Virus record (IMG/VR): IMGVR_UViG_3300005253_000530
Strand: one strand, 5' to 3'
Origin: a virus
Lineage: Duplodnaviria > Heunggongvirae > Uroviricota > Caudoviricetes
Length of the DNA stretch: 26,300 bases
Within the stretch, counting starts at the first letter, position 1. The number at the start of each line of letters is the position of its first letter. Positions 2,366-25,836 of this stretch are shown here, piece by piece. The notes under the pieces were generated by a model. That model saw nothing but the letters and a program-made list of their open reading frames with translations, searched no databases and had not been told where the DNA came from. Position numbers and translations under genes: made by a program.

Positions 2366-3571
2366 ATGCTAACTAAAAAACAAATAGAAAAGTATGCAGA
2401 TGTAATGGTATGGGCCGTGATGGAGGAACGAAGGGGTAAGTTTTCGAAAGGCGATATAGTTCGTGTAAAATTTGATTTACCGGCTATAAGTCTGGCTGAG
2501 GAGATTCAAGTTAGACTACTGGATAAGGATATGCATCCTGATATGTGTCCACTTATTAACGAGAATATGGAGAGAGATTTCTATGAGCATGCTAGCAATA
2601 AACAACTATCTTTTATTATGCCCTGGTCGGAAGCTGCATGTAACAATATAAATGGTAACATATATTTATTTGCACCAACGTCTTTAACACATTTAAAAGA
2701 TATTGATCCTGCAAAAATGGCACGAAGTGCACGAGCCGCTAAGCCTCTTAAGGATATTCTAGAAAACAGGGAATATGCTGGACAGTTTGGATGGACATTG
2801 TGTAGTTTTCCTACTGAAGCAGTAGCAGAGAAAGCCAACATGACGGTGAAGCAATATGCTAATCAAATAGCTAAGGCATGTTATTTGAATGAGTCAGACC
2901 CAATAGGCGCATGGAAAACAGCCATGAAGGACATGGAGAAGATTAGGGTGTGGTTGAATAGGATGTTGGTTAAGACTAAGCACCTACATATCCAATCAAA
3001 GAACATGGATTTAAGGGTGGTGCCAGGTGAATGCCGTAGATGGATGGGCGGAGAAGGGGCTAACATACCCAGCTTCGAGTTGTTTTTATCTCCAGATCAT
3101 AGACATACTGAAGGCGTATATTTCGCTAACCTACCCTCTTATAGGCAGGGTAATTATGTTGAAGATGTAAGAATGGTGTTTAAAAAAGGTTCGGCTGTAG
3201 AAATAACAGCAAAGAAAGGCGAAAAGTATATTCAGGAAACGGCGAAGATGGACAAGGGTGCTAGTAGGGTAGGAGAATTTTCTCTGACTGATAAAAGATT
3301 TTCAAAGATAAATAAATTTATGGCAGAAATATTATATGACGAGAATTATGGTGGAAGGTATGGCAACTGCCACCTTGCACTTGGTTCGTCTTATGGAGAA
3401 ACTTATAATGGTGATCTAAAAACTTTTGATAAGGAAAAGAAAGCAGAGCTAGGATTTAATGATTCAGCACTTCATTGGGACCTTATTAACACAGAGGACA
3501 AGATCGTTACCGCTCTTTTTAACAATGGGAAGGAGAAAGTTATCTATGAGAAAGGAATGTTTACATACTAA
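2366..3571 (+). CDS. Aminopeptidase, M29 (AmpS / aminopeptidase T) family
   Basis: 401 aa; ANIPSFELFLSP, VGEFSL, LYDENYGG..GNCHLALGSSY and SALHWDLI match M29 metal-binding motifs. Confidence 0.9.
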   Translation: MLTKKQIEKYADVMVWAVMEERRGKFSKGDIVRVKFDLPAISLAEEIQVRLLDKDMHPDMCPLINENMERDFYEHASNKQLSFIMPWSEAACNNINGNIYLFAPTSLTHLKDIDPAKMARSARAAKPLKDILENREYAGQFGWTLCSFPTEAVAEKANMTVKQYANQIAKACYLNESDPIGAWKTAMKDMEKIRVWLNRMLVKTKHLHIQSKNMDLRVVPGECRRWMGGEGANIPSFELFLSPDHRHTEGVYFANLPSYRQGNYVEDVRMVFKKGSAVEITAKKGEKYIQETAKMDKGASRVGEFSLTDKRFSKINKFMAEILYDENYGGRYGNCHLALGSSYGETYNGDLKTFDKEKKAELGFNDSALHWDLINTEDKIVTALFNNGKEKVIYEKGMFTY

Positions 3572-3589
3572 TGAAAGGAGGATATCAGA

Positions 3590-3790
3590 GTGGCTATTGG
3601 AACAGTAAAATGGTTTAATGACAAGAAAGGCTACGGTTTTATTGAGCAGGAAGACGGTCCCGATGTATTTGTTCATCATTCAGGAATAAACGCGCACGGA
3701 TTCAGAACTCTGGACGAAGGCGCTAACGTTGATTTTGAAGTAGAGCAAGGCGACAAAGGTCCAACCGCAGTAAATGTCACAACAATCTAA
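3590..3790 (+). CDS. csp: Cold-shock protein (CspA family)
   Basis: [15 protein letters not shown] (RNP1) and DVFVHHS (RNP2); GTG start after AAAGGAGG. Confidence 0.97.
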
Positions 3791-9520: not shown

Positions 9521-10186
9521 TTATAACCACCTCTCGGACACAGTAGATTTTGATTCAACAAAATTACAAAAGTAAAGACTGCCACCTATTATTTCAATAT
9601 GTTCTCCTCTAAAACCGCCTCCGCAGTTAAAGAAATCACAGCCTTCTATTGTGATGTAGTACTGTCTGTGATGGTGCCCCATTATAATAGTGTTTACTTT
9701 TGGAAAATGTTTGGCTATCTTTTTTTGTAATATAACCAGCCTTACTATTTCAGTATCTCTCATGCTGGTATTATCTTGTTCAGGCTTTGTATATTTGACG
9801 ATATTACCGCTACATGGTAGTATTGTGTCTTTATTTTTGATCGCGCCGTAATGAGTCATGAAAAAGTCAACAATATCTTTGAAATATCTATTAATAAACC
9901 CAGCTTGTCTTTCTTCATTATGCCCATGAATAAGTAGAACTTCGTCTGTTAATAGTATATGATCCACTAAGCCTTTTCTAACTGTATCAATTCTGTACTC
10001 ATGGTTCCCCATTATAGGTGTGTGAGGTATATCAGCGTAATAATCTGGATACATACGAGTATCACCAAGAAAATATATGCGACGGGATCCTTCTTTTTGT
10101 ATTAAAAGACTATGTACTGATGGATTATACCCTCTTTCTGAGTGTAAGTCTGATATAAATAAGCTATCTTCTATGTCTTTAATCAT
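9521..10186 (-). CDS. Calcineurin-like metallophosphoesterase
   Basis: SDLH, LGD, GNHE, IHGH and GHHH motifs in order. Confidence 0.9.
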   Translation of the reverse strand: MIKDIEDSLFISDLHSERGYNPSVHSLLIQKEGSRRIYFLGDTRMYPDYYADIPHTPIMGNHEYRIDTVRKGLVDHILLTDEVLLIHGHNEERQAGFINRYFKDIVDFFMTHYGAIKNKDTILPCSGNIVKYTKPEQDNTSMRDTEIVRLVILQKKIAKHFPKVNTIIMGHHHRQYYITIEGCDFFNCGGGFRGEHIEIIGGSLYFCNFVESKSTVSERWL

Positions 10187-16396: not shown

Positions 16397-16972
16397 TTAT
16401 ATATATTTTAACGCTTGCTTGAAGTCTTCGACCACGATATTGAAATGTCTGTGTTTTATTCCGCCACCTCTTGCTAAATAACTGGGGTGATATGTAGATA
16501 TGAACTTCACTCCCATATATTTGTATTCTTTACCTCTCATCTGACCTATTTTTAAATCATTGTTCAATAGGAAGTTACAAACATCTCCTCCTAACCCAAT
16601 GATCACCTTAGGTTTTATGAAATGTATCTGTGCCACGAAATATGGTAAGCATCTAACCATCCACTCTTCCCTTAATTTGGTGCCAGGTTGGACATAACAC
16701 TTAACCAAGTTAGTTATATAGACATGATCACTTGATTCTGTTGGGAATAGTTGGTCCAATATACCATCATCACCATCTAATATTTTGCCAGCAGTTCCAA
16801 CAAATGGAAGTCCTATTCTATTTTCGTCGGGACCAGGACACATACCACATACAACTATGTCAGCATTAGGATTTCCTCTACCAAATACTGGTTTGATCCT
16901 ATTTTTGCATAAGTCACACAGCATACAGTGTTTCGCTGTTTGTTGTACTGTATCTAAATCCATTTTGTTCAA
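16397..16972 (-). CDS. Uracil-DNA glycosylase, family 4 (Fe-S)
   Basis: CMLCDLC, VFGRG, GMCPGPDE..GLPFVGTAG, YITNLVKC, TYHPSY. Confidence 0.93.
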   Translation of the reverse strand: MNKMDLDTVQQTAKHCMLCDLCKNRIKPVFGRGNPNADIVVCGMCPGPDENRIGLPFVGTAGKILDGDDGILDQLFPTESSDHVYITNLVKCYVQPGTKLREEWMVRCLPYFVAQIHFIKPKVIIGLGGDVCNFLLNNDLKIGQMRGKEYKYMGVKFISTYHPSYLARGGGIKHRHFNIVVEDFKQALKYI

Positions 16973-17814
16973 TTTTCCTTTCTACTCCAACGTGAATTGA
17001 AGTCTATGTGTGGATACCATAACCAGAAGAACTTCTTCCATCTTGCCTTAGAAGCATTTTTTCTGGGAGGTTGCGCATCAAATGGCATATCAAATGTGTC
17101 CGCTCCGCATTTACACCGTGGTGATAAGCTACCATTTCTAAAGCAATCCACGCAGAATCTTCTCTGTCTATATTTTTTTGAGTCTGATAAAATTAATTCG
17201 GTTCGGTCAAGCAACTGACCGGCTCTATAAGAGTCTTCACTATATGATGCTTTGACTTTGTCTATCCACGCTTTCGATTTTATTTTGAACATGGCTAGCT
17301 GATTTCTATGGATGCCCTTACATACAACTCCTTCGAAGGTCATGCCTTCTACTTTACCTTCTCTTACCGATTCTATAAATAGATTCCCTACTCGGCCTGT
17401 GAATACTATGTTGGGTATTTCTACTACACCGCCAAACAGTTTGATAAATTTTATTGGTGCAAGTATGCCTTTTTTATAAGGATTAACGTCTATTAGAGTT
17501 ACTGTATGTCCTTCTTCTTCGTGGTTGCCGGCAAAAGAATTTGGACCATAAAATTCAAAGAATGTGATCACTCTTCCATATTTGTTATCATAGAATATTT
17601 TGGATAAGCTTTCGCTATATTTCCCATTTATAAGATCTATTGATTCTCCAAGTGGTTGTTCATCCTTATCTAGCAACCTATGACGTGCTCCGAATTTATA
17701 GAAGCCATTTTTTGTGTTCCACTCAGCTCTGATATTGGATCCATCCAGCTTATCGAATGCATAGACCTCGATATTTCCGTTGATCTTGTATTCAATTATT
17801 GGGTATGGTTTCAT
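16969..17814 (-). CDS. RNA-ligase-like nucleotidyltransferase with Cys-rich C-terminal tail
   Basis: DKLDGSN (motif I), FEFYG, EGVV (motif IV), FKIK (motif V). Confidence 0.75.
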   Translation of the reverse strand: MKPYPIIEYKINGNIEVYAFDKLDGSNIRAEWNTKNGFYKFGARHRLLDKDEQPLGESIDLINGKYSESLSKIFYDNKYGRVITFFEFYGPNSFAGNHEEEGHTVTLIDVNPYKKGILAPIKFIKLFGGVVEIPNIVFTGRVGNLFIESVREGKVEGMTFEGVVCKGIHRNQLAMFKIKSKAWIDKVKASYSEDSYRAGQLLDRTELILSDSKKYRQRRFCVDCFRNGSLSPRCKCGADTFDMPFDAQPPRKNASKARWKKFFWLWYPHIDFNSRWSRKEN

Positions 17815-17826
17815 AATATTACCGTG

Positions 17827-17900
17827 CACGCCCGGAGGGACTTAAACCCCCGACTCCCAGGGTCGAAACCTGGAGCTCTGTTCAACTGAGCTACGGGCGT
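17827..17900 (-). tRNA. tRNA-Arg(TCG)
   Basis: ACGCCCG/CGGGCGT; CCAGG TT TCG AC CCTGG; A19 with T56. Confidence 0.88.
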
Positions 17901-18069: not shown

Positions 18070-18240
18070 TTAATCCTCTCCAAATACTTTTCTCCATTCC
18101 CGCTCGAAATCTTCGTTACTGAATCCTTCGTAGAATGTTTCATGTTGTTCTATGAGTACATCTATCATTGTACCAAGATCCATTTGGTCAACAATTTCTG
18201 CTGCTAACATTTCTCTGTTCTTTTCTGTGTTTCTTTTCAT
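18070..18240 (-). CDS. 56-aa acidic protein (not in ORF track)
   Basis: ATG overlaps the pncB stop; MKRNTEKNREMLAAEIVDQMD... Confidence 0.6.
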   Translation of the reverse strand: MKRNTEKNREMLAAEIVDQMDLGTMIDVLIEQHETFYEGFSNEDFEREWRKVFGED

Positions 18241-19397
18241 TTAGATATCCTTTTGTCGAAAGTCCTTTTTAAAGAGTCTACATACGACTGGTCTGTACAC
18301 ATGCCTTTTGCAGGATAAGTATCACTTATCTTTGCAACGGGTTGTCCATTACAACCGACCATTTTGAGTACTATTTGCAGCGCTTTGAAGTCGAAGTCGT
18401 TTGTTATATGAGTACCAATTCCAAATGACACCATTATTCTATCCCGATAGCTATGCCATAGTTTTAATGCTTTTACAAAGTTGAGGCCGTCACTGAAAAC
18501 GATCGTTTTGGTTATAGGATCTATCTTCATATTTGTATAGTGGCTTATCATATGGCTCGCATATGTATATGGGTCTCCAGAGTCTTGCCTGGTGCCATCG
18601 AACAACTTTGCGAAAAACATGTCAAAGTCATGTAGGAAGTATTTTAGTCCTATAACATCTGATAGGGCTATTCCCAAATCACCTCTATACTCTTTTGACC
18701 AATTTTCTAGGGCCATAAACTGACTGTCCGCTATTCTATATAATGCTTGATGAGCCTGAAGCCACTCATGAGCCATTGTCCCAATTGGTGTCAATCCGAG
18801 TTCTTTAGCCATCATCACGTTGCTTGTTCCAACCATGTTGTCTGGACACTTCTTCTTGAAGATCTCAAGGGCATTGTAGTGGGCTCGCACTGAGTGCCTT
18901 CTTCGGCCGCCAAATTCTGAAAACGTGAGGGCGGTGTCTTTTATCATCTCAGCCTTTGCTTCTGTTCGTTTGTTAGCTAAGTCATAATCCTGGCTCATGT
19001 CAGTAGAATATACTTCGCTGACAATAGACAGAACCGGATCCTCAAACAGTATGGTGTGTAACCATGGGCCTTGTATATGTATGTGTAGTGTGCCGCTGTT
19101 GTCAGCCCTGATGTCAATATAGTTGTAATCGAACCGAAACAGCTTGAGAAATTGGAGATAATCGGGTTTAAGAAATCTCAAATCACCAAGATATTCTAGA
19201 TCCTCTTTTTCAAAGCGCAGATCTCTGCACATTCTATTTACGTTCTTAATAATATCTCCTACATAGGGCCGGAAATCAATATTATCAGTCCGACATTTAA
19301 AGAGATATTCCACCATTGCATCTGGGTGTTGGTGTAGAACAGCCTGCATCATTGTGAATTTATATAGATCGTTGTCCAACATAGATGTAATAATCAT
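18237..19397 (-). CDS. pncB: Nicotinate phosphoribosyltransferase
   Basis: SMLDNDLYKFTMMQA, EFGGRRR, GTSNV, GTMAHEW, RQDSGDP, VFSDGL, FGIGT, VAKISD. Confidence 0.95.
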   Translation of the reverse strand: MIITSMLDNDLYKFTMMQAVLHQHPDAMVEYLFKCRTDNIDFRPYVGDIIKNVNRMCRDLRFEKEDLEYLGDLRFLKPDYLQFLKLFRFDYNYIDIRADNSGTLHIHIQGPWLHTILFEDPVLSIVSEVYSTDMSQDYDLANKRTEAKAEMIKDTALTFSEFGGRRRHSVRAHYNALEIFKKKCPDNMVGTSNVMMAKELGLTPIGTMAHEWLQAHQALYRIADSQFMALENWSKEYRGDLGIALSDVIGLKYFLHDFDMFFAKLFDGTRQDSGDPYTYASHMISHYTNMKIDPITKTIVFSDGLNFVKALKLWHSYRDRIMVSFGIGTHITNDFDFKALQIVLKMVGCNGQPVAKISDTYPAKGMCTDQSYVDSLKRTFDKRISK

Positions 19398-19406
19398 AAT
19401 TCTCTC

Positions 19407-20249
19407 CTATCTTACTATATATTCTCTGGGAATATTGAATGGGTTATTTCGTTTGAACTCTGTTGCCCTATGTCTTTTTACTATTTCACTATGGTCATGT
19501 GCTGCACTTAGCCGAAGCCTTAAAACTTGGTCTATCTCTTGATATACCTCTTTGTGTGACATTCTCTCATCATAGTGCGGGTATATCTGATCAAAGTCCG
19601 AATTGGTAACACCTAATCCGTCTGTAGGTACCGCATCCATGCACTCTTTGAGAGCGTCAGCTTGACGGCCTCGACCTGAGAGATTGAATCTTTTCACAAG
19701 ATACTCAGCCAGTCCATAGACTTCCGTCTTCCACAGATTTTGTATCATTCCAAAGTCGCCGACATCTCCATGTAGTGTCCAGAATCCGAGTAGATACTCG
19801 GTGTAATTATCTGTTGATAGAACCATACCATCTAATTCGTTAGCTAGATCATATAGTTTAATCATTCTTATACGTGCTTTTATATTACCGAGTCTTATGT
19901 TTGTTTTAAAGGCGTCTATTTGTGTTCTTTCCATTGTCATTGCGGATATCATTTGAAAAGGGCCTATCAGATTACTCTGCTGATATCCATCACAGAAAGC
20001 AATAGCAGCATCAAAACCTCTATCTATTTCATTTTTATTGGACTCTATGTCTATTACTCGTCCTTCCAGTAGAATATTGTTATCAAGTCTCTTGACTACT
20101 TCCTGAGCAAGAGCTGCAGTCAGGGTGCTGTCAATTCCACCGGACATTCCTATTACGAGAGCCTTTATTTTATTTGAGGCTATATAAGAATGAGCCGACC
20201 CAACGATGTTTTCGAACATTTTCTCATAGTCGTTGCAAAATTTATACAT
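19407..20249 (-). CDS. nadE: NH3-dependent NAD+ synthetase
   Basis: GMSGGIDS PP-loop, GNIKARIRM, TDNYTE, FWTLHGD, PTDGL; no glutaminase domain. Confidence 0.95.
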   Translation of the reverse strand: MYKFCNDYEKMFENIVGSAHSYIASNKIKALVIGMSGGIDSTLTAALAQEVVKRLDNNILLEGRVIDIESNKNEIDRGFDAAIAFCDGYQQSNLIGPFQMISAMTMERTQIDAFKTNIRLGNIKARIRMIKLYDLANELDGMVLSTDNYTEYLLGFWTLHGDVGDFGMIQNLWKTEVYGLAEYLVKRFNLSGRGRQADALKECMDAVPTDGLGVTNSDFDQIYPHYDERMSHKEVYQEIDQVLRLRLSAAHDHSEIVKRHRATEFKRNNPFNIPREYIVR

Positions 20250-20829
20250 ATAATTCGTGCTCCTTTATATAAGTTAGAGTACTTGATGTTAAGTGCTCTG
20301 GGTTTAATCTGTTGTTCTTAATATCCTGTCTTATATCAGAAGACGATATATCAGTACCGGTTACATTCACATACCGATGTGGTGGTTTCAGGAACCAATC
20401 AGCTTTCAAACGGCCTCCTCTCGTCATTACTAAGAAAGGTATGAGATTTATAAGTTCTTCCCACCTCTCCCACCTATCTATTACAATGGCTTGATCCATA
20501 CCTATAAGATAAGCGGTGTTATCAGGAGTAATATAGTCATATATTTCTGATTTAAACAACATTTTCAGCGTATCTATTGTGGGGCCTTTGACTTTATATA
20601 CTATTTCGAATAGTGTCGACCAAATCCTATGATCTGCAAAATCTGACAAAGCTTCGTATATCATAGCCACTCTGTGTGCTGGGTCTGCGGTTTTTTTATC
20701 CCATATGTGCTTATATGTAGGCATAAATAGTAGCCTATCATACCCAGTAGCATCGAGTACTTGACTGGCTTTATTCAAATGATCCGTATGGATAGGATCG
20801 AATGCTCCGCCGAATATTATGTATCTCAT
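20242..20829 (-). CDS. nadD: Nicotinate-nucleotide adenylyltransferase
   Basis: FGGAFDPIHTDH (HxGH variant), LIGMD, ISSSDIR. Confidence 0.9.
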   Translation of the reverse strand: MRYIIFGGAFDPIHTDHLNKASQVLDATGYDRLLFMPTYKHIWDKKTADPAHRVAMIYEALSDFADHRIWSTLFEIVYKVKGPTIDTLKMLFKSEIYDYITPDNTAYLIGMDQAIVIDRWERWEELINLIPFLVMTRGGRLKADWFLKPPHRYVNVTGTDISSSDIRQDIKNNRLNPEHLTSSTLTYIKEHELYV

Positions 20830-21443
20830 TCTACCAAGTTCTCCAACTCAGACCTTTCTATTGGCCATGCACTTTGTCTTGATAGATTAAGTGTGACAAG
20901 TTTAATGCCTTTGTTAGCCATCTCTGTCACAGCCTTTGTTCCGTCTTCAGGATTGATATTTACAGCCCTGATAGCATCACCTAGCAAGAACACTTCTCCG
21001 CCGAATTTCTCCACGGCATCAAGTGCTGTGGCTTTGACACAATAATCGGTAGCTAACCCGCACACAAATAACCTTTTGGCTCCCATTTCCTTTAACATAT
21101 TGGCCAGATTTGTTCCTTCGAATGCCGAGTAAGCTTCTTCGTCCCACCCTTTGTCTATCAATGCAACAGCTGAAGTGTCTGGAAATTCAATGCCAGAGTG
21201 TATTTCCATTCCATAAGTACCATCTACACAATGGTCCGGCCATGTTCCACCCTGATCAGTGAATGATGGATGCCCTTTCTTGTGTCTGTCCCTGGAGACT
21301 ACCACTTTCCTGAACTTTTCTATGTACTTATTGATTGCTGGTGCTAAACTTTCTGCTCCGGGAACTGCCAAGCTACCAGTAATAAAATCGTTTTGAAAGT
21401 CTACAACGATTAGTACATCCGTTTTCCTGTCTATTTTTGTCAT
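20826..21443 (-). CDS. pncA: Nicotinamidase
   Basis: VVDFQNDF, SRDRH, WPDHCV, GLATDYCVKATALDA. Confidence 0.95.
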   Translation of the reverse strand: MTKIDRKTDVLIVVDFQNDFITGSLAVPGAESLAPAINKYIEKFRKVVVSRDRHKKGHPSFTDQGGTWPDHCVDGTYGMEIHSGIEFPDTSAVALIDKGWDEEAYSAFEGTNLANMLKEMGAKRLFVCGLATDYCVKATALDAVEKFGGEVFLLGDAIRAVNINPEDGTKAVTEMANKGIKLVTLNLSRQSAWPIERSELENLVE

Positions 21444-21447
21444 AATT

Positions 21448-21861
21448 CTATCCTCCATAGAGTAAAAATTTAGTCTTTATGTTCTTGAAATATGGAGCCC
21501 ACTCTTTCTTATCATCTAACATCATGTCGACCCCATGCTTCTCACATATTTCGGCCTTGGCTTTCCACCATTCCTCGTCGTGAGACCACCACCTTCCTCT
21601 TTCATCTTGCCACATCTCCACGCCCTTTTCTTTCAGGTGATCCACCACTGAGAATATCTCATCGAAGTGTAATCCGCGACAGATCTTGTGTTTTTCTAAC
21701 TCTTTCCTTATATCTTCCTTTGGAGGCCCTGATATTATGTATATGTCGATTGGTTTATATTCACCAAATCCTATCATGAGCCACTCAAGTCGAGCAAGTC
21801 GAGACTGAAACCACTTTGGATCATCATCTATAACACCGTGTAAATCTATTCCAATTATCAT
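21448..21861 (-). CDS. HAD-like hydrolase (variant motif I)
   Basis: IGIDLHGVID; KAEIC; MLDD; start reassigned out of tRNA-Tyr. Confidence 0.6.
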   Translation of the reverse strand: MIIGIDLHGVIDDDPKWFQSRLARLEWLMIGFGEYKPIDIYIISGPPKEDIRKELEKHKICRGLHFDEIFSVVDHLKEKGVEMWQDERGRWWSHDEEWWKAKAEICEKHGVDMMLDDKKEWAPYFKNIKTKFLLYGG

Positions 21862-22103: not shown

Positions 22104-22550
22104 TTATTCCTCCAACTTTCTTATTACTATATCAGCCAACTCTTTTGTCAATCCTGTCTCTGGATCACACCAGACTAAATGACTTGATATAGAGCCCATA
22201 TCTGTGTTGTCGTCCAATATAACGAACGAGGAGACGTCATACTCTGACTTCCTATACTCGCATATGAACTTCTCTATTTCTTCTCCTCTAGGACCGCCTG
22301 AGAGCTTTACAAGGGATGTTTTACCCACTATTTCACCCTTTATTCCTACAGAATGTAATAGATCTGATAATTCTTGGTAGCCCATGATATTTTTCCAACT
22401 GCTACTGATTACTATCTTTGCCCCAGTATACTCCGTAATTCGATTGAGAGCGGCTACACATTCTGAAGAGAATCTCTTTTCTATAGGTCTGCTGCCCCAG
22501 TTACTGATAGTATTTAGAACTCCATCTATGTCGAGAAATATTATTTTCAT
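22104..22550 (-). CDS. HAD phosphatase of the type associated with RNA repair
   Basis: IFLDIDGVL, IVISSSWK, RGEEI, FVILDD, ETGLT; start reassigned out of tRNA-His. Confidence 0.8.
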   Translation of the reverse strand: MKIIFLDIDGVLNTISNWGSRPIEKRFSSECVAALNRITEYTGAKIVISSSWKNIMGYQELSDLLHSVGIKGEIVGKTSLVKLSGGPRGEEIEKFICEYRKSEYDVSSFVILDDNTDMGSISSHLVWCDPETGLTKELADIVIRKLEE

Positions 22551-22561
22551 TCTTTTTCCTT

Positions 22562-22651
22562 TGGGGTAACCGACGAGCCTCGAACTCGCACATTCTTCAC
22601 AGAATACAGGGGCCACATCCCTGCGCGTCTACCATTTCCGCCACGGCTACC
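22562..22651 (-). tRNA. tRNA-His(GTG) with long variable arm, G-1:C73, CCA encoded
   Basis: G-GTAGCCG TG GCG GAAATGGTAGA CGC G CAGGG AT GTG GC CCCTG TATTCT GTGA AGAATG T GCGAG TTCGAGG CTCGT CGGTTAC C CCA. Confidence 0.85.
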
Positions 22652-22654
22652 ATA

Positions 22655-23431
22655 TTATCTATATAGATGAGCTTTATAAGCTTTTTCTACTGTCTCATCC
22701 CAACTATCATCATCAAACGGATCAACTACCCCTTGTGGACATGTAGATGATGATCCATCTGGGAACATCCATAATGCTTTAAGGGTCACACATCTCTTTT
22801 CACATCCAGCACATGCTGACCCTCTGTTCTCTTGTTTGCCAGTAAATCTCGTTGAAATACCCTCTTCGAAGTGATCTATAAAGAAATCTATACGGGCTTG
22901 GAGATATTTTTGTATCTCGCAATTGAAATCGGCAAATAACTTAACCTTTATGCCAGCTTTTATATAGAAGCCAATTATATCTATTAATTGATGGTTTGGT
23001 TGATCCTCTGTGATTACAATTTGAACCACCATATCCTTGGCATGATGTGCAAAATCTCTTACTACATGATCTTTGTGAGTAACTCCTACATGCCAGCAGT
23101 CTACATAACGTATACGATCTGAATTTAAAGCCATGCCATTTGTTACAACCTTTATTACATCACAGTAACCTTTTGCATGATGGAGTATAAAATCAAGCCA
23201 AGGATGTATGCCTGGCTCACCCCCAGAGAAAGTAACTATGGACTTTTCCTTTATGGACTTCATAAAAGTTCCGTATGCTCTCAGACAATCCACTGTATCC
23301 ATAGGAGACACACACTGTGCTGGCCTCTTGGGCTGAAAATCGTTGAGACAAAAATGACAATTCTTATTGCATTGATTAGTCAGTAAAATTCTTAACCTGA
23401 ACTCATCTCTATGTATAGTTTTATCAAACAT
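22655..23431 (-). CDS. Radical SAM enzyme (MoaA-like N-terminus, C-terminal Cys cluster)
   Basis: CNKNCHFC (CxxxCxxC), FSGGEP, VVTNG; CAGCEKRC...TCP. Confidence 0.9.
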   Translation of the reverse strand: MFDKTIHRDEFRLRILLTNQCNKNCHFCLNDFQPKRPAQCVSPMDTVDCLRAYGTFMKSIKEKSIVTFSGGEPGIHPWLDFILHHAKGYCDVIKVVTNGMALNSDRIRYVDCWHVGVTHKDHVVRDFAHHAKDMVVQIVITEDQPNHQLIDIIGFYIKAGIKVKLFADFNCEIQKYLQARIDFFIDHFEEGISTRFTGKQENRGSACAGCEKRCVTLKALWMFPDGSSSTCPQGVVDPFDDDSWDETVEKAYKAHLYR

Positions 23432-24522: not shown

Positions 24523-24608
24523 TGGAGGAGAACAGAGGAATCGAACCCCCATGTTTTACCACGCCCCTGGGTTCAAACCAGGTTGCCGACCATTCGGTAG
24601 TGCTCTCC
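24523..24608 (-). tRNA. tRNA-Ser(TGA), folds as an 8/4 allo-tRNA type
   Basis: GGAGAGCA/TGTTCTCC 8-bp acceptor, 6-bp D-stem with 4-nt loop, long V-arm, 4-bp T-stem, T73 CCA. Confidence 0.75.
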
Positions 24609-25261: not shown

Positions 25262-25345
25262 TGCCAGAGATGAGACTCGAACTCACACGCCCTATGGACA
25301 CCAGTTTTTGAGACTGGCATGTCTACCTGTTTCCATCACTCTGGC
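25262..25345 (-). tRNA. tRNA-Leu(CAA)
   Basis: Class II body; CT CAA AA loop; A73. Confidence 0.95.
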
Positions 25346-25741
25346 TTATGCTTCATCTTTAGGTACAAACCCATGGCATTCTGAATCTATACACGTAAAT
25401 CCATTCCTTGATAGCTTGCAGTTATCGCAGCTGTATCTAGATTCGTGATGTGGGTATCCACCTTTTTCACACTCGACCCTATGTTTTATCATGCTCTCGT
25501 TTTTCTTTTTATCTGTACGTTCTTCCTTTTGTGTTTTTATAGACCTTGTTAAAATATGTTCACATTCTAAAGTCATGACTGCTTGTAGTACTATGTGAGA
25601 AATATCTCTAAGAGAATACCCTTTTTCTACCCATTTTTTAAATATAGGATCGATAGCTTTACATGTTTGGCTATCTAAAATGTTTCCATCTTCATTGTAA
25701 GAGTCATATTTTTCATTAAATAGTAATTTTTTACTCATCAT
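25346..25741 (-). CDS. Hypothetical protein with Cys-rich tail (start reassigned)
   Basis: AGGGGA RBS; stop abuts the tRNA-Leu(CAA) start. Confidence 0.7.
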   Translation of the reverse strand: MMSKKLLFNEKYDSYNEDGNILDSQTCKAIDPIFKKWVEKGYSLRDISHIVLQAVMTLECEHILTRSIKTQKEERTDKKKNESMIKHRVECEKGGYPHHESRYSCDNCKLSRNGFTCIDSECHGFVPKDEA

Positions 25742-25752
25742 TAATTCCCCTT

Positions 25753-25836
25753 TGCCGAAGGTGGGAATTGAACCCACACGCTCTATGAGCACTGGATTTT
25801 AAGTCCAGTATGTCTGCCTGGTTCCATCACTCCGGC
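25753..25836 (-). tRNA. tRNA-Leu(TAA)
   Basis: Class II body; CT TAA AA loop; A73. Confidence 0.95.

Follow-up and report, generated by a model that had tools for sequence, protein, structure and literature searches.

A predicted phage tRNA-His that joins a leucine-like long-armed body to the histidine identity set

In a 26,300-nt stretch of DNA from an uncultured marine-sediment phage (the window; IMG/VR record IMGVR_UViG_3300005253_000530) we found a tRNA-His gene that, read from its sequence, is a Leu-like class II body bearing the full histidine identity set. We consider it probable that this is a working phage tRNA-His, predicted to be charged by the HisRS of the host and to read CAY codons as histidine; mischarging by LeuRS, SerRS or TyrRS, and with it mistranslation, is unlikely. 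The gene belongs to a class of long-armed tRNA-His genes of phages. Their extra arm is a simple, stable hairpin whose pairing exceeds chance and which selection keeps for its shape, not for its sequence.

Structure and surroundings of the gene

The window is AT-rich (about 37% G+C) and carries 16 tRNA genes on its minus strand as called by ARAGORN, which alternate with small ORFs and NAD-salvage genes in a phage-like layout. ARAGORN called a tRNA-His(gtg) at 22562-22650 (-). The Rfam tRNA model (RF00005) missed this gene in a scan of the whole window and in a 4-kb scan; given only 181 nt, it scored the gene at 37.6 bits (cut-off 29, E 7.5e-7), indicating that the earlier miss was a filter effect and that two independent detectors agree. 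Folded to minimum energy, the 90 nt form a cloverleaf in which the acceptor helix has 8 bp, G-1:C73 among them, the D-stem 3 bp and the extra hairpin 5 bp (Table 1). The branch geometry is that of a 7-bp acceptor and a 5-bp T-stem (7/5), and U33, the T-loop, CCA and the identity marks are all kept. With a hairpin in a variable region of 16-17 nt and only 3 bp in the D-stem, the architecture is not that of class I. The original prediction of a GTG anticodon, an encoded G-1 opposite C73, CCA and a length of 90 nt was borne out by ARAGORN, the sequence and the fold, and so was its 6-bp variable-arm stem, of which the fold forms five pairs while the sixth, the closing pair 22606/22591, is an optional terminal U.G.

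Table 1. Coordinates of the tRNA-His gene, its parts and its two neighbours in the window.
Feature	Position	Strand	Evidence
Whole class II tRNA-His gene, G-1 to A76, 90 nt	22562..22651	-	ARAGORN, Rfam RF00005, cloverleaf minimum-energy fold
Encoded G-1, paired with C73 (22565)	22651..22651	-	Sequence; G at -1 also in 16/16 Leu-type relatives
Leader A(-3) U(-2), RNase P leader motif one base further upstream	22652..22653	-	Leader counts in the class
Acceptor stem 5' strand G1-G7, paired with 22566-22572; includes G4.U69	22644..22650	-	Fold, covariation, Rfam
Leu-type D-arm: 3-bp stem GCG/CGC, 11-nt loop with GG and UAGA	22625..22641	-	D-arm matches, BLAST
Anticodon arm, loop AUGUGGC; anticodon GUG at 22614-22616	22607..22623	-	ARAGORN, sequence; ortholog L469
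Variable arm: stem 22601-22605 with 22592-22596, GNRA loop GUGA 22597-22600	22591..22606	-	Fold, covariation, L469
T-arm, G49.U65, loop UUCGAGG	22573..22589	-	Fold, Rfam; 3' BLAST matches to phage tRNA-His
Discriminator C73 and encoded CCA; CCA at 22564-22562	22562..22565	-	Sequence
Radical SAM protein gene, upstream neighbour; ends 3 nt before the leader	22655..23431	-	Syntenic in L469
Downstream neighbour ORF; likely start ATG 22550-22548	22104..22550	-	83% identical protein, same place in L469

Comparison with known tRNAs placed the gene between two families. Like canonical class I tRNA-His of bacteria and phages, it has GUG, G-1:C73, a His-type acceptor end, G49.U65 and an encoded CCA; unlike them, with their 4-5-nt variable loop and 4-bp D-stem, it has the 16-17-nt region with a hairpin and the 3-bp D-stem with a Leu-type loop. 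With bacterial and phage tRNA-Leu it shares the D-arm (up to 19/20) and the single unpaired base before the arm hairpin with one or two after it, and in class members the core (positions 8-80) matches many phage tRNA-Leu. It departs from tRNA-Leu in its discriminator, C73 where tRNA-Leu has A73, and in the extra G-1, the acceptor stem of His type and the GUG anticodon.

BLAST against annotated phage genomes matched positions 7-33 and 9-78 of the window tRNA to annotated tRNA-Leu genes, and positions 57-90 and 63-90 to annotated phage tRNA-His genes. In two other members of the class, positions 8-80 matched tRNA-Leu of dozens of phages with 73-83% identity. Among 1,015 unique tRNAs from the fetched loci, the ten best non-His matches of the 20-nt D-arm were all tRNA-Leu, reaching 19/20, as were ten of the twelve best matches of the core. 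The Leu-type D-arm had been predicted, as had a Leu-like scaffold of 'identity-switched' make-up, and both descriptions hold, the core finding tRNA-Leu and the acceptor end tRNA-His. A predicted likeness to the two tRNA-Leu genes of the window (25262-25836) holds for the architecture, but the letters common to both amount to only about 57%. The mosaic is compatible with two origins, a tRNA-Leu that was re-identified or a tRNA-His that gained Leu-like arms. Leu tRNAs with GAG and AAG anticodons account for 16 of the 36 best Leu matches versus 17 of 79 in the pool, which weakly suggests that the gene descends from tRNA-Leu(GAG) through one change, A35U.

An apparent mosaic of Leu-like and His-like parts that Rfam missed in two scans could also be an assembly chimera or a decaying pseudogene, a reading to which we give next to no credence. 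Identical error-free unitigs span the whole gene in runs from two marine-sediment studies (X2, 22501-22653; X4, 22522-22653), and L469, a contig from a JGI metagenome, is related and syntenic, with proteins 70-89% identical and the gene order radical SAM gene, tRNA-His, ORF, tRNA-Tyr and four NAD genes. The tRNA-His of L469 is identical to the window gene in its acceptor, D and T arms and carries compensatory changes in three of the five anticodon-stem pairs and in two variable-arm pairs, with the arm loop AAGA. About 100 covarying relatives and the Rfam match on the short region argue likewise against a chimera or pseudogene. Misassembly had been named as a possible undoing of the original prediction; the unitigs of two studies and the syntenic ortholog exclude it.

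Apart from L469, no relatives of the window's proteins were found in the phage loci retrieved with the tRNA patterns. INPHARED, searched by BLAST at the default cut-off with the 401 nt surrounding the gene, gave no match, nor did E. coli genomes searched with the 90-nt tRNA, and an exact 39-mer of the tRNA was absent from JGI metagenome contigs. One low-depth contig from X2 joins 22551 to 22649 and skips the tRNA, and further contigs hold variant copies with 8-9 differences or with another anticodon stem and arm; related sediment strains seem to differ at the tRNA-His gene.

G34 of His tRNAs is normally the queuosine site. The radical SAM protein encoded upstream gave a weak QueE-like PHROG match (E 1.3e-5) and had no relative in IMG/VR; its connection with queuosine at G34 of the tRNA-His is speculative. 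On the other side, a GGA-rich site lies directly behind the tRNA-His, ahead of the likely ATG of the downstream ORF. A four-gene NAD salvage and synthesis block at 18237-21458 (-), kept in L469, encodes a nicotinate phosphoribosyltransferase, an NAD synthase, a cytidylyltransferase-like (NMNAT-like) protein and an isochorismatase-family (nicotinamidase-like) protein. Inside the tRNA region lie an RNA-ligase-like ORF (16969-17829 (-); PHROG 548, E 1.8e-7) and a calcineurin-like phosphoesterase gene (9521-10186 (-)), which could form an RNA or tRNA repair pair. The window's tRNA-Ser(tga) at 24523-24608 (-) was unmatched by the Rfam tRNA model and scored 36.8 bits with the tRNA-Sec model versus a cut-off of 47 bits.

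A class of long-armed tRNA-His genes in phages

Long-armed tRNA-His genes with G-1 and C73 were present in at least about 100 IMG/VR contigs. We scanned with two patterns, and the counts are lower bounds shaped by the patterns used. The first pattern, in which only the D-loop, anticodon and T-loop were fixed and the 5' end was left free, returned 15 Leu-type long-armed genes from IMG/VR and a further two from tRNA arrays on MAG contigs; position -1 is G in every one, although the pattern left this base open. The second, in which the His acceptor end including G-1 was fixed and the D-arm left free, returned at least 86 long-armed tRNA-His in 102 new viral loci, and in 185,579 cellular genomes seven long-armed genes in 120 loci among the matches listed, at least four of them in tRNA arrays. 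Thus, the search of viral contigs for long-armed GTG tRNAs that had been proposed with the original prediction showed them to be common in phage sets. C73 is present in 85 of 87 class members among the matches listed. The window gene shares with the class the GUG anticodon, G-1:C73, a covarying arm hairpin and a place in a phage tRNA cluster, and falls into its Leu-type subgroup; among the matches listed for the second pattern, about one quarter of the D-arms are Leu-type and the rest resemble those of Ser, Tyr or class I tRNAs.

The consensus fold of 16 Leu-type members is a cloverleaf with the arm, and the three inner arm pairs show compensatory double changes in 6, 9 and 11 sequences, respectively. 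Over the whole cloverleaf 96.7% of cells pair, versus 72% in shuffled controls (0 of 500 reach the observed value) and about 43% when partners were slid. Arm loops were without conservation, and 32 of 83 among the matches listed are plain GNRA tetraloops; unconserved loops on paired stems indicate that the arm is kept for its shape. We also asked whether the arm loop GUGA might show the His anticodon a second time, as in the synthetic tRNAs of PMC7590224, and rejected this idea, as GUG occurs in the window's loop alone out of 83 arm loops, the ortholog in L469 has AAGA and GNRA loops are as frequent as stated.

Two phages have no tRNA-His other than the long-armed one: the cultured Brevibacillus phage Jenst, whose genome is complete, and a 156-kb phage that is 97% complete. 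Jenst and Brevibacillus phage SecTim467 (KT151955, KT151957) resemble the window in carrying a Leu-type long-armed tRNA-His, annotated as plain tRNA-His, but are unrelated phages in which no protein of the window has a relative; the paper on Jenst gives the tRNA count only (PMC4909266). Our search of the literature, of incomplete coverage, found no description of a long-armed tRNA-His with G-1 and C73 or of its phage class.

In 24 of 101 viral loci among the matches listed, a class I tRNA-His adjoins the long-armed one, often within a few bases, which suggests that the two forms are not redundant and not fully equivalent. Examples of such pairs are L217:3607-3695 with 3700-3776, L242:3417-3505 with 3515-3589 and L286:551-635 with 645-719. 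Unusual lengths were also seen for other isotypes called by ARAGORN in the fetched phage loci (L001-L315): tRNAs of at least 82 nt made up 16/67 of Lys, 12/59 of Met, 12/46 of Trp, 9/60 of Asn, 9/56 of Ile and 8/39 of Cys, and 33 of 86 Leu tRNAs were short.

Amino-acid identity, 5' processing and charging

The bacterial histidine identity set consists of G-1, C73 and G34 U35 G36, and in the T. thermophilus complex HisRS anchors the tRNA by its G-1 and anticodon regions alone (PMC9976931). All of these nucleotides are present in the window tRNA. The leader points the same way: in class II tRNA-His genes among the matches listed, -2 is T in 75 of 83 and -3 is A in 73 of 83, followed by G-1, whereas other phage tRNAs of the fetched loci have T at -1 (610/875) and A at -2 (535/875). 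The A-U leader is thus moved one base upstream, as expected if RNase P leaves G-1 in place; the second pattern prescribed G-1 but not the A-U shift. No notable difference was found between the anticodon loops of class I and long-armed phage tRNA-His; A32 of the window gene is a base seldom seen in the class, in 2 of 87 genes among the matches listed.

Following these marks, we infer that the tRNA would be transcribed together with the neighbouring genes and cut by RNase P one base upstream of the usual site, so that the encoded G-1 stays and pairs with C73, with the CCA end supplied by the gene itself. Host HisRS would then read mainly G-1:C73 and secondarily the GUG anticodon and attach histidine, and the charged tRNA would decode CAU and CAC. 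Five phage records with long-armed tRNA-His, three of them at least 97% complete, yielded no HisRS domain, so a host enzyme must serve; a phage HisRS adapted to the arm, which we had considered, did not turn up in these five records. The window covers 26 kb of the phage, and a canonical tRNA-His or a phage HisRS may lie elsewhere in its genome.

Synthetic tRNAs provide a precedent for this route. E. coli RNase P cut long-armed tRNAs with G-1:C73 at -1, and through E. coli HisRS these tRNAs inserted histidine in vivo (PMC7590224). Among them, H072 and H073 share the long variable arm and G-1:C73 with the window tRNA, were cut at -1 and were charged in vivo, but are engineered 9/3 allo-tRNA amber suppressors. 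E. coli HisRS failed to charge some long-armed G-1:C73 chassis before their arm was changed (PMC7590224), indicating that arm geometry can matter, and some of the synthetic tRNAs in that study relied on a GUG in the arm loop, unlike the natural class, which has no conserved GUG there. The (8/4) tRNA-His of alphaproteobacterial phages and the allo-tRNAs (PMC5389517) resemble the window tRNA as non-canonical tRNA-His in phage tRNA clusters. They differ from the window tRNA in having an 8/4 branch, A73 or U73 and no G-1, as opposed to 7/5 and G-1:C73; the window tRNA lacks the 8/4 or 9/3 acceptor/T branch that defines (8/4) tRNA-His and allo-tRNAs.

The Leu-like body raises the question whether LeuRS, which ignores the anticodon, could accept this tRNA, so that CAY would be read partly as leucine. 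The Leu-type D-arm with the long arm, A14, the Leu-like core and the arm geometry are all present, and nematode nev-tRNAs, which also combine a class II body with an anticodon outside Leu/Ser, are reported to be leucylated in vitro against their anticodon (PMC3333845); cellular genomes, moreover, hold Leu-type GUG tRNAs with A73 beside a normal tRNA-His. In the window tRNA, by contrast with the nev-tRNAs, the acceptor identity fits the anticodon: the main Leu determinant is A73 (PMC9976931), whereas C73 stands here as in nearly all of the class, a Leu anticodon (NAG or YAA) is absent, and the extra G-1:C73 pair changes the acceptor end. Furthermore, every His codon would be corrupted in the two phage genomes in which the long-armed gene is the sole tRNA-His. 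We therefore regard leucine charging as very improbable.

Charging by SerRS or TyrRS through the long arm, which would place Ser or Tyr at His codons, deserves still less weight. The long arm, C11:G24 and R4:Y69 would suit SerRS, and G34 U35 together with the long arm are common to bacterial tRNA-Tyr. However, the Ser marks G73 and G2:C71 are replaced by C73 and U2:A71, the Tyr marks A73 and the GUA anticodon with its A36 by C73 and G36, and the D-arm and the arm base are of Leu type, not of Ser or Tyr. The suggestion made with the original prediction, that charging by LeuRS or SerRS would mistranslate His codons, is thus not upheld: every bacterial His determinant is present, the key marks of Leu, Ser and Tyr are absent, and two near-complete phage genomes have the long-armed form as their only tRNA-His.

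Cellular genomes hold another kind of long-armed GUG tRNA, in which the acceptor stem is of Leu type, the discriminator is A73 and G-1 is not consistently present. Three copies lie in Gemmatimonadota MAGs with flanks common to all three (L100:6588-6671, L127:165-249 and L128:1200-1284), and further copies were found at L165:5997-6081, L178:1504-1588 and L193:7234-7320. A normal class I tRNA-His with C73 was present in all five of the searched genomes that bear this tRNA; since the normal form is also present, the cellular A73 tRNAs are candidates for His-to-Leu mistranslation or a regulatory role.

The extra arm and what it may mean

We also weighed roles outside decoding. Instead of being mainly a decoder, the tRNA might distract or soak up a nuclease or sensor of the host that is directed at tRNA, or serve another non-translational role. 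Phage tRNAs are known to neutralise defences that target tRNA (PMC10264068, PMC11464382, PMC11555353), class I and long-armed tRNA-His adjoin in about a quarter of the loci listed, and the window holds the RNA-ligase-like and phosphoesterase genes. On the other hand, the full translation set is kept (identity marks, U33, T-loop, CCA and the 7/5 acceptor-T branch), two phages have no other tRNA-His, and no tRNA-His-directed defence system was found here. A non-decoding role is accordingly unlikely.

As a guess, and as the less probable case, the extra arm and the Leu-type D-arm may be a selected disguise, which would leave the tRNA chargeable by host HisRS and make it a poor substrate for a host recogniser of the class I shape of tRNA-His, e.g. 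a tRNA-cleaving defence nuclease. E5-type anticodon nucleases are among the enzymes that cleave tRNAs, and act on those of His, Tyr, Asn and Asp. If true, the disguise would explain why class I tRNA-His often stands beside the long-armed form and why tRNAs for Lys, Met, Trp, Asn and Ile in these clusters are remodelled alike, and re-bodying of class I tRNAs would be a general counter-defence of phages.

In textbooks and reviews (e.g. PMC7609411) the long variable arm is reserved in bacteria for tRNAs of Leu, Ser, Tyr and Sec. A tRNA-His with G-1:C73 on a Leu-like class II body, in at least about 100 phage contigs and in cultured phage, breaks this rule. For annotation, it means that filtered covariance-model scans can lose such genes and that their isotype could be mis-scored as Leu; for tRNA engineering, it offers a natural scaffold for orthogonal or tagged tRNAs. 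The existence of the class implies that a long-armed tRNA-His is tolerated by HisRS, RNase P, EF-Tu and the ribosome, and it may signal that the shape of phage tRNAs is under pressure, possibly from host immunity that targets tRNA.
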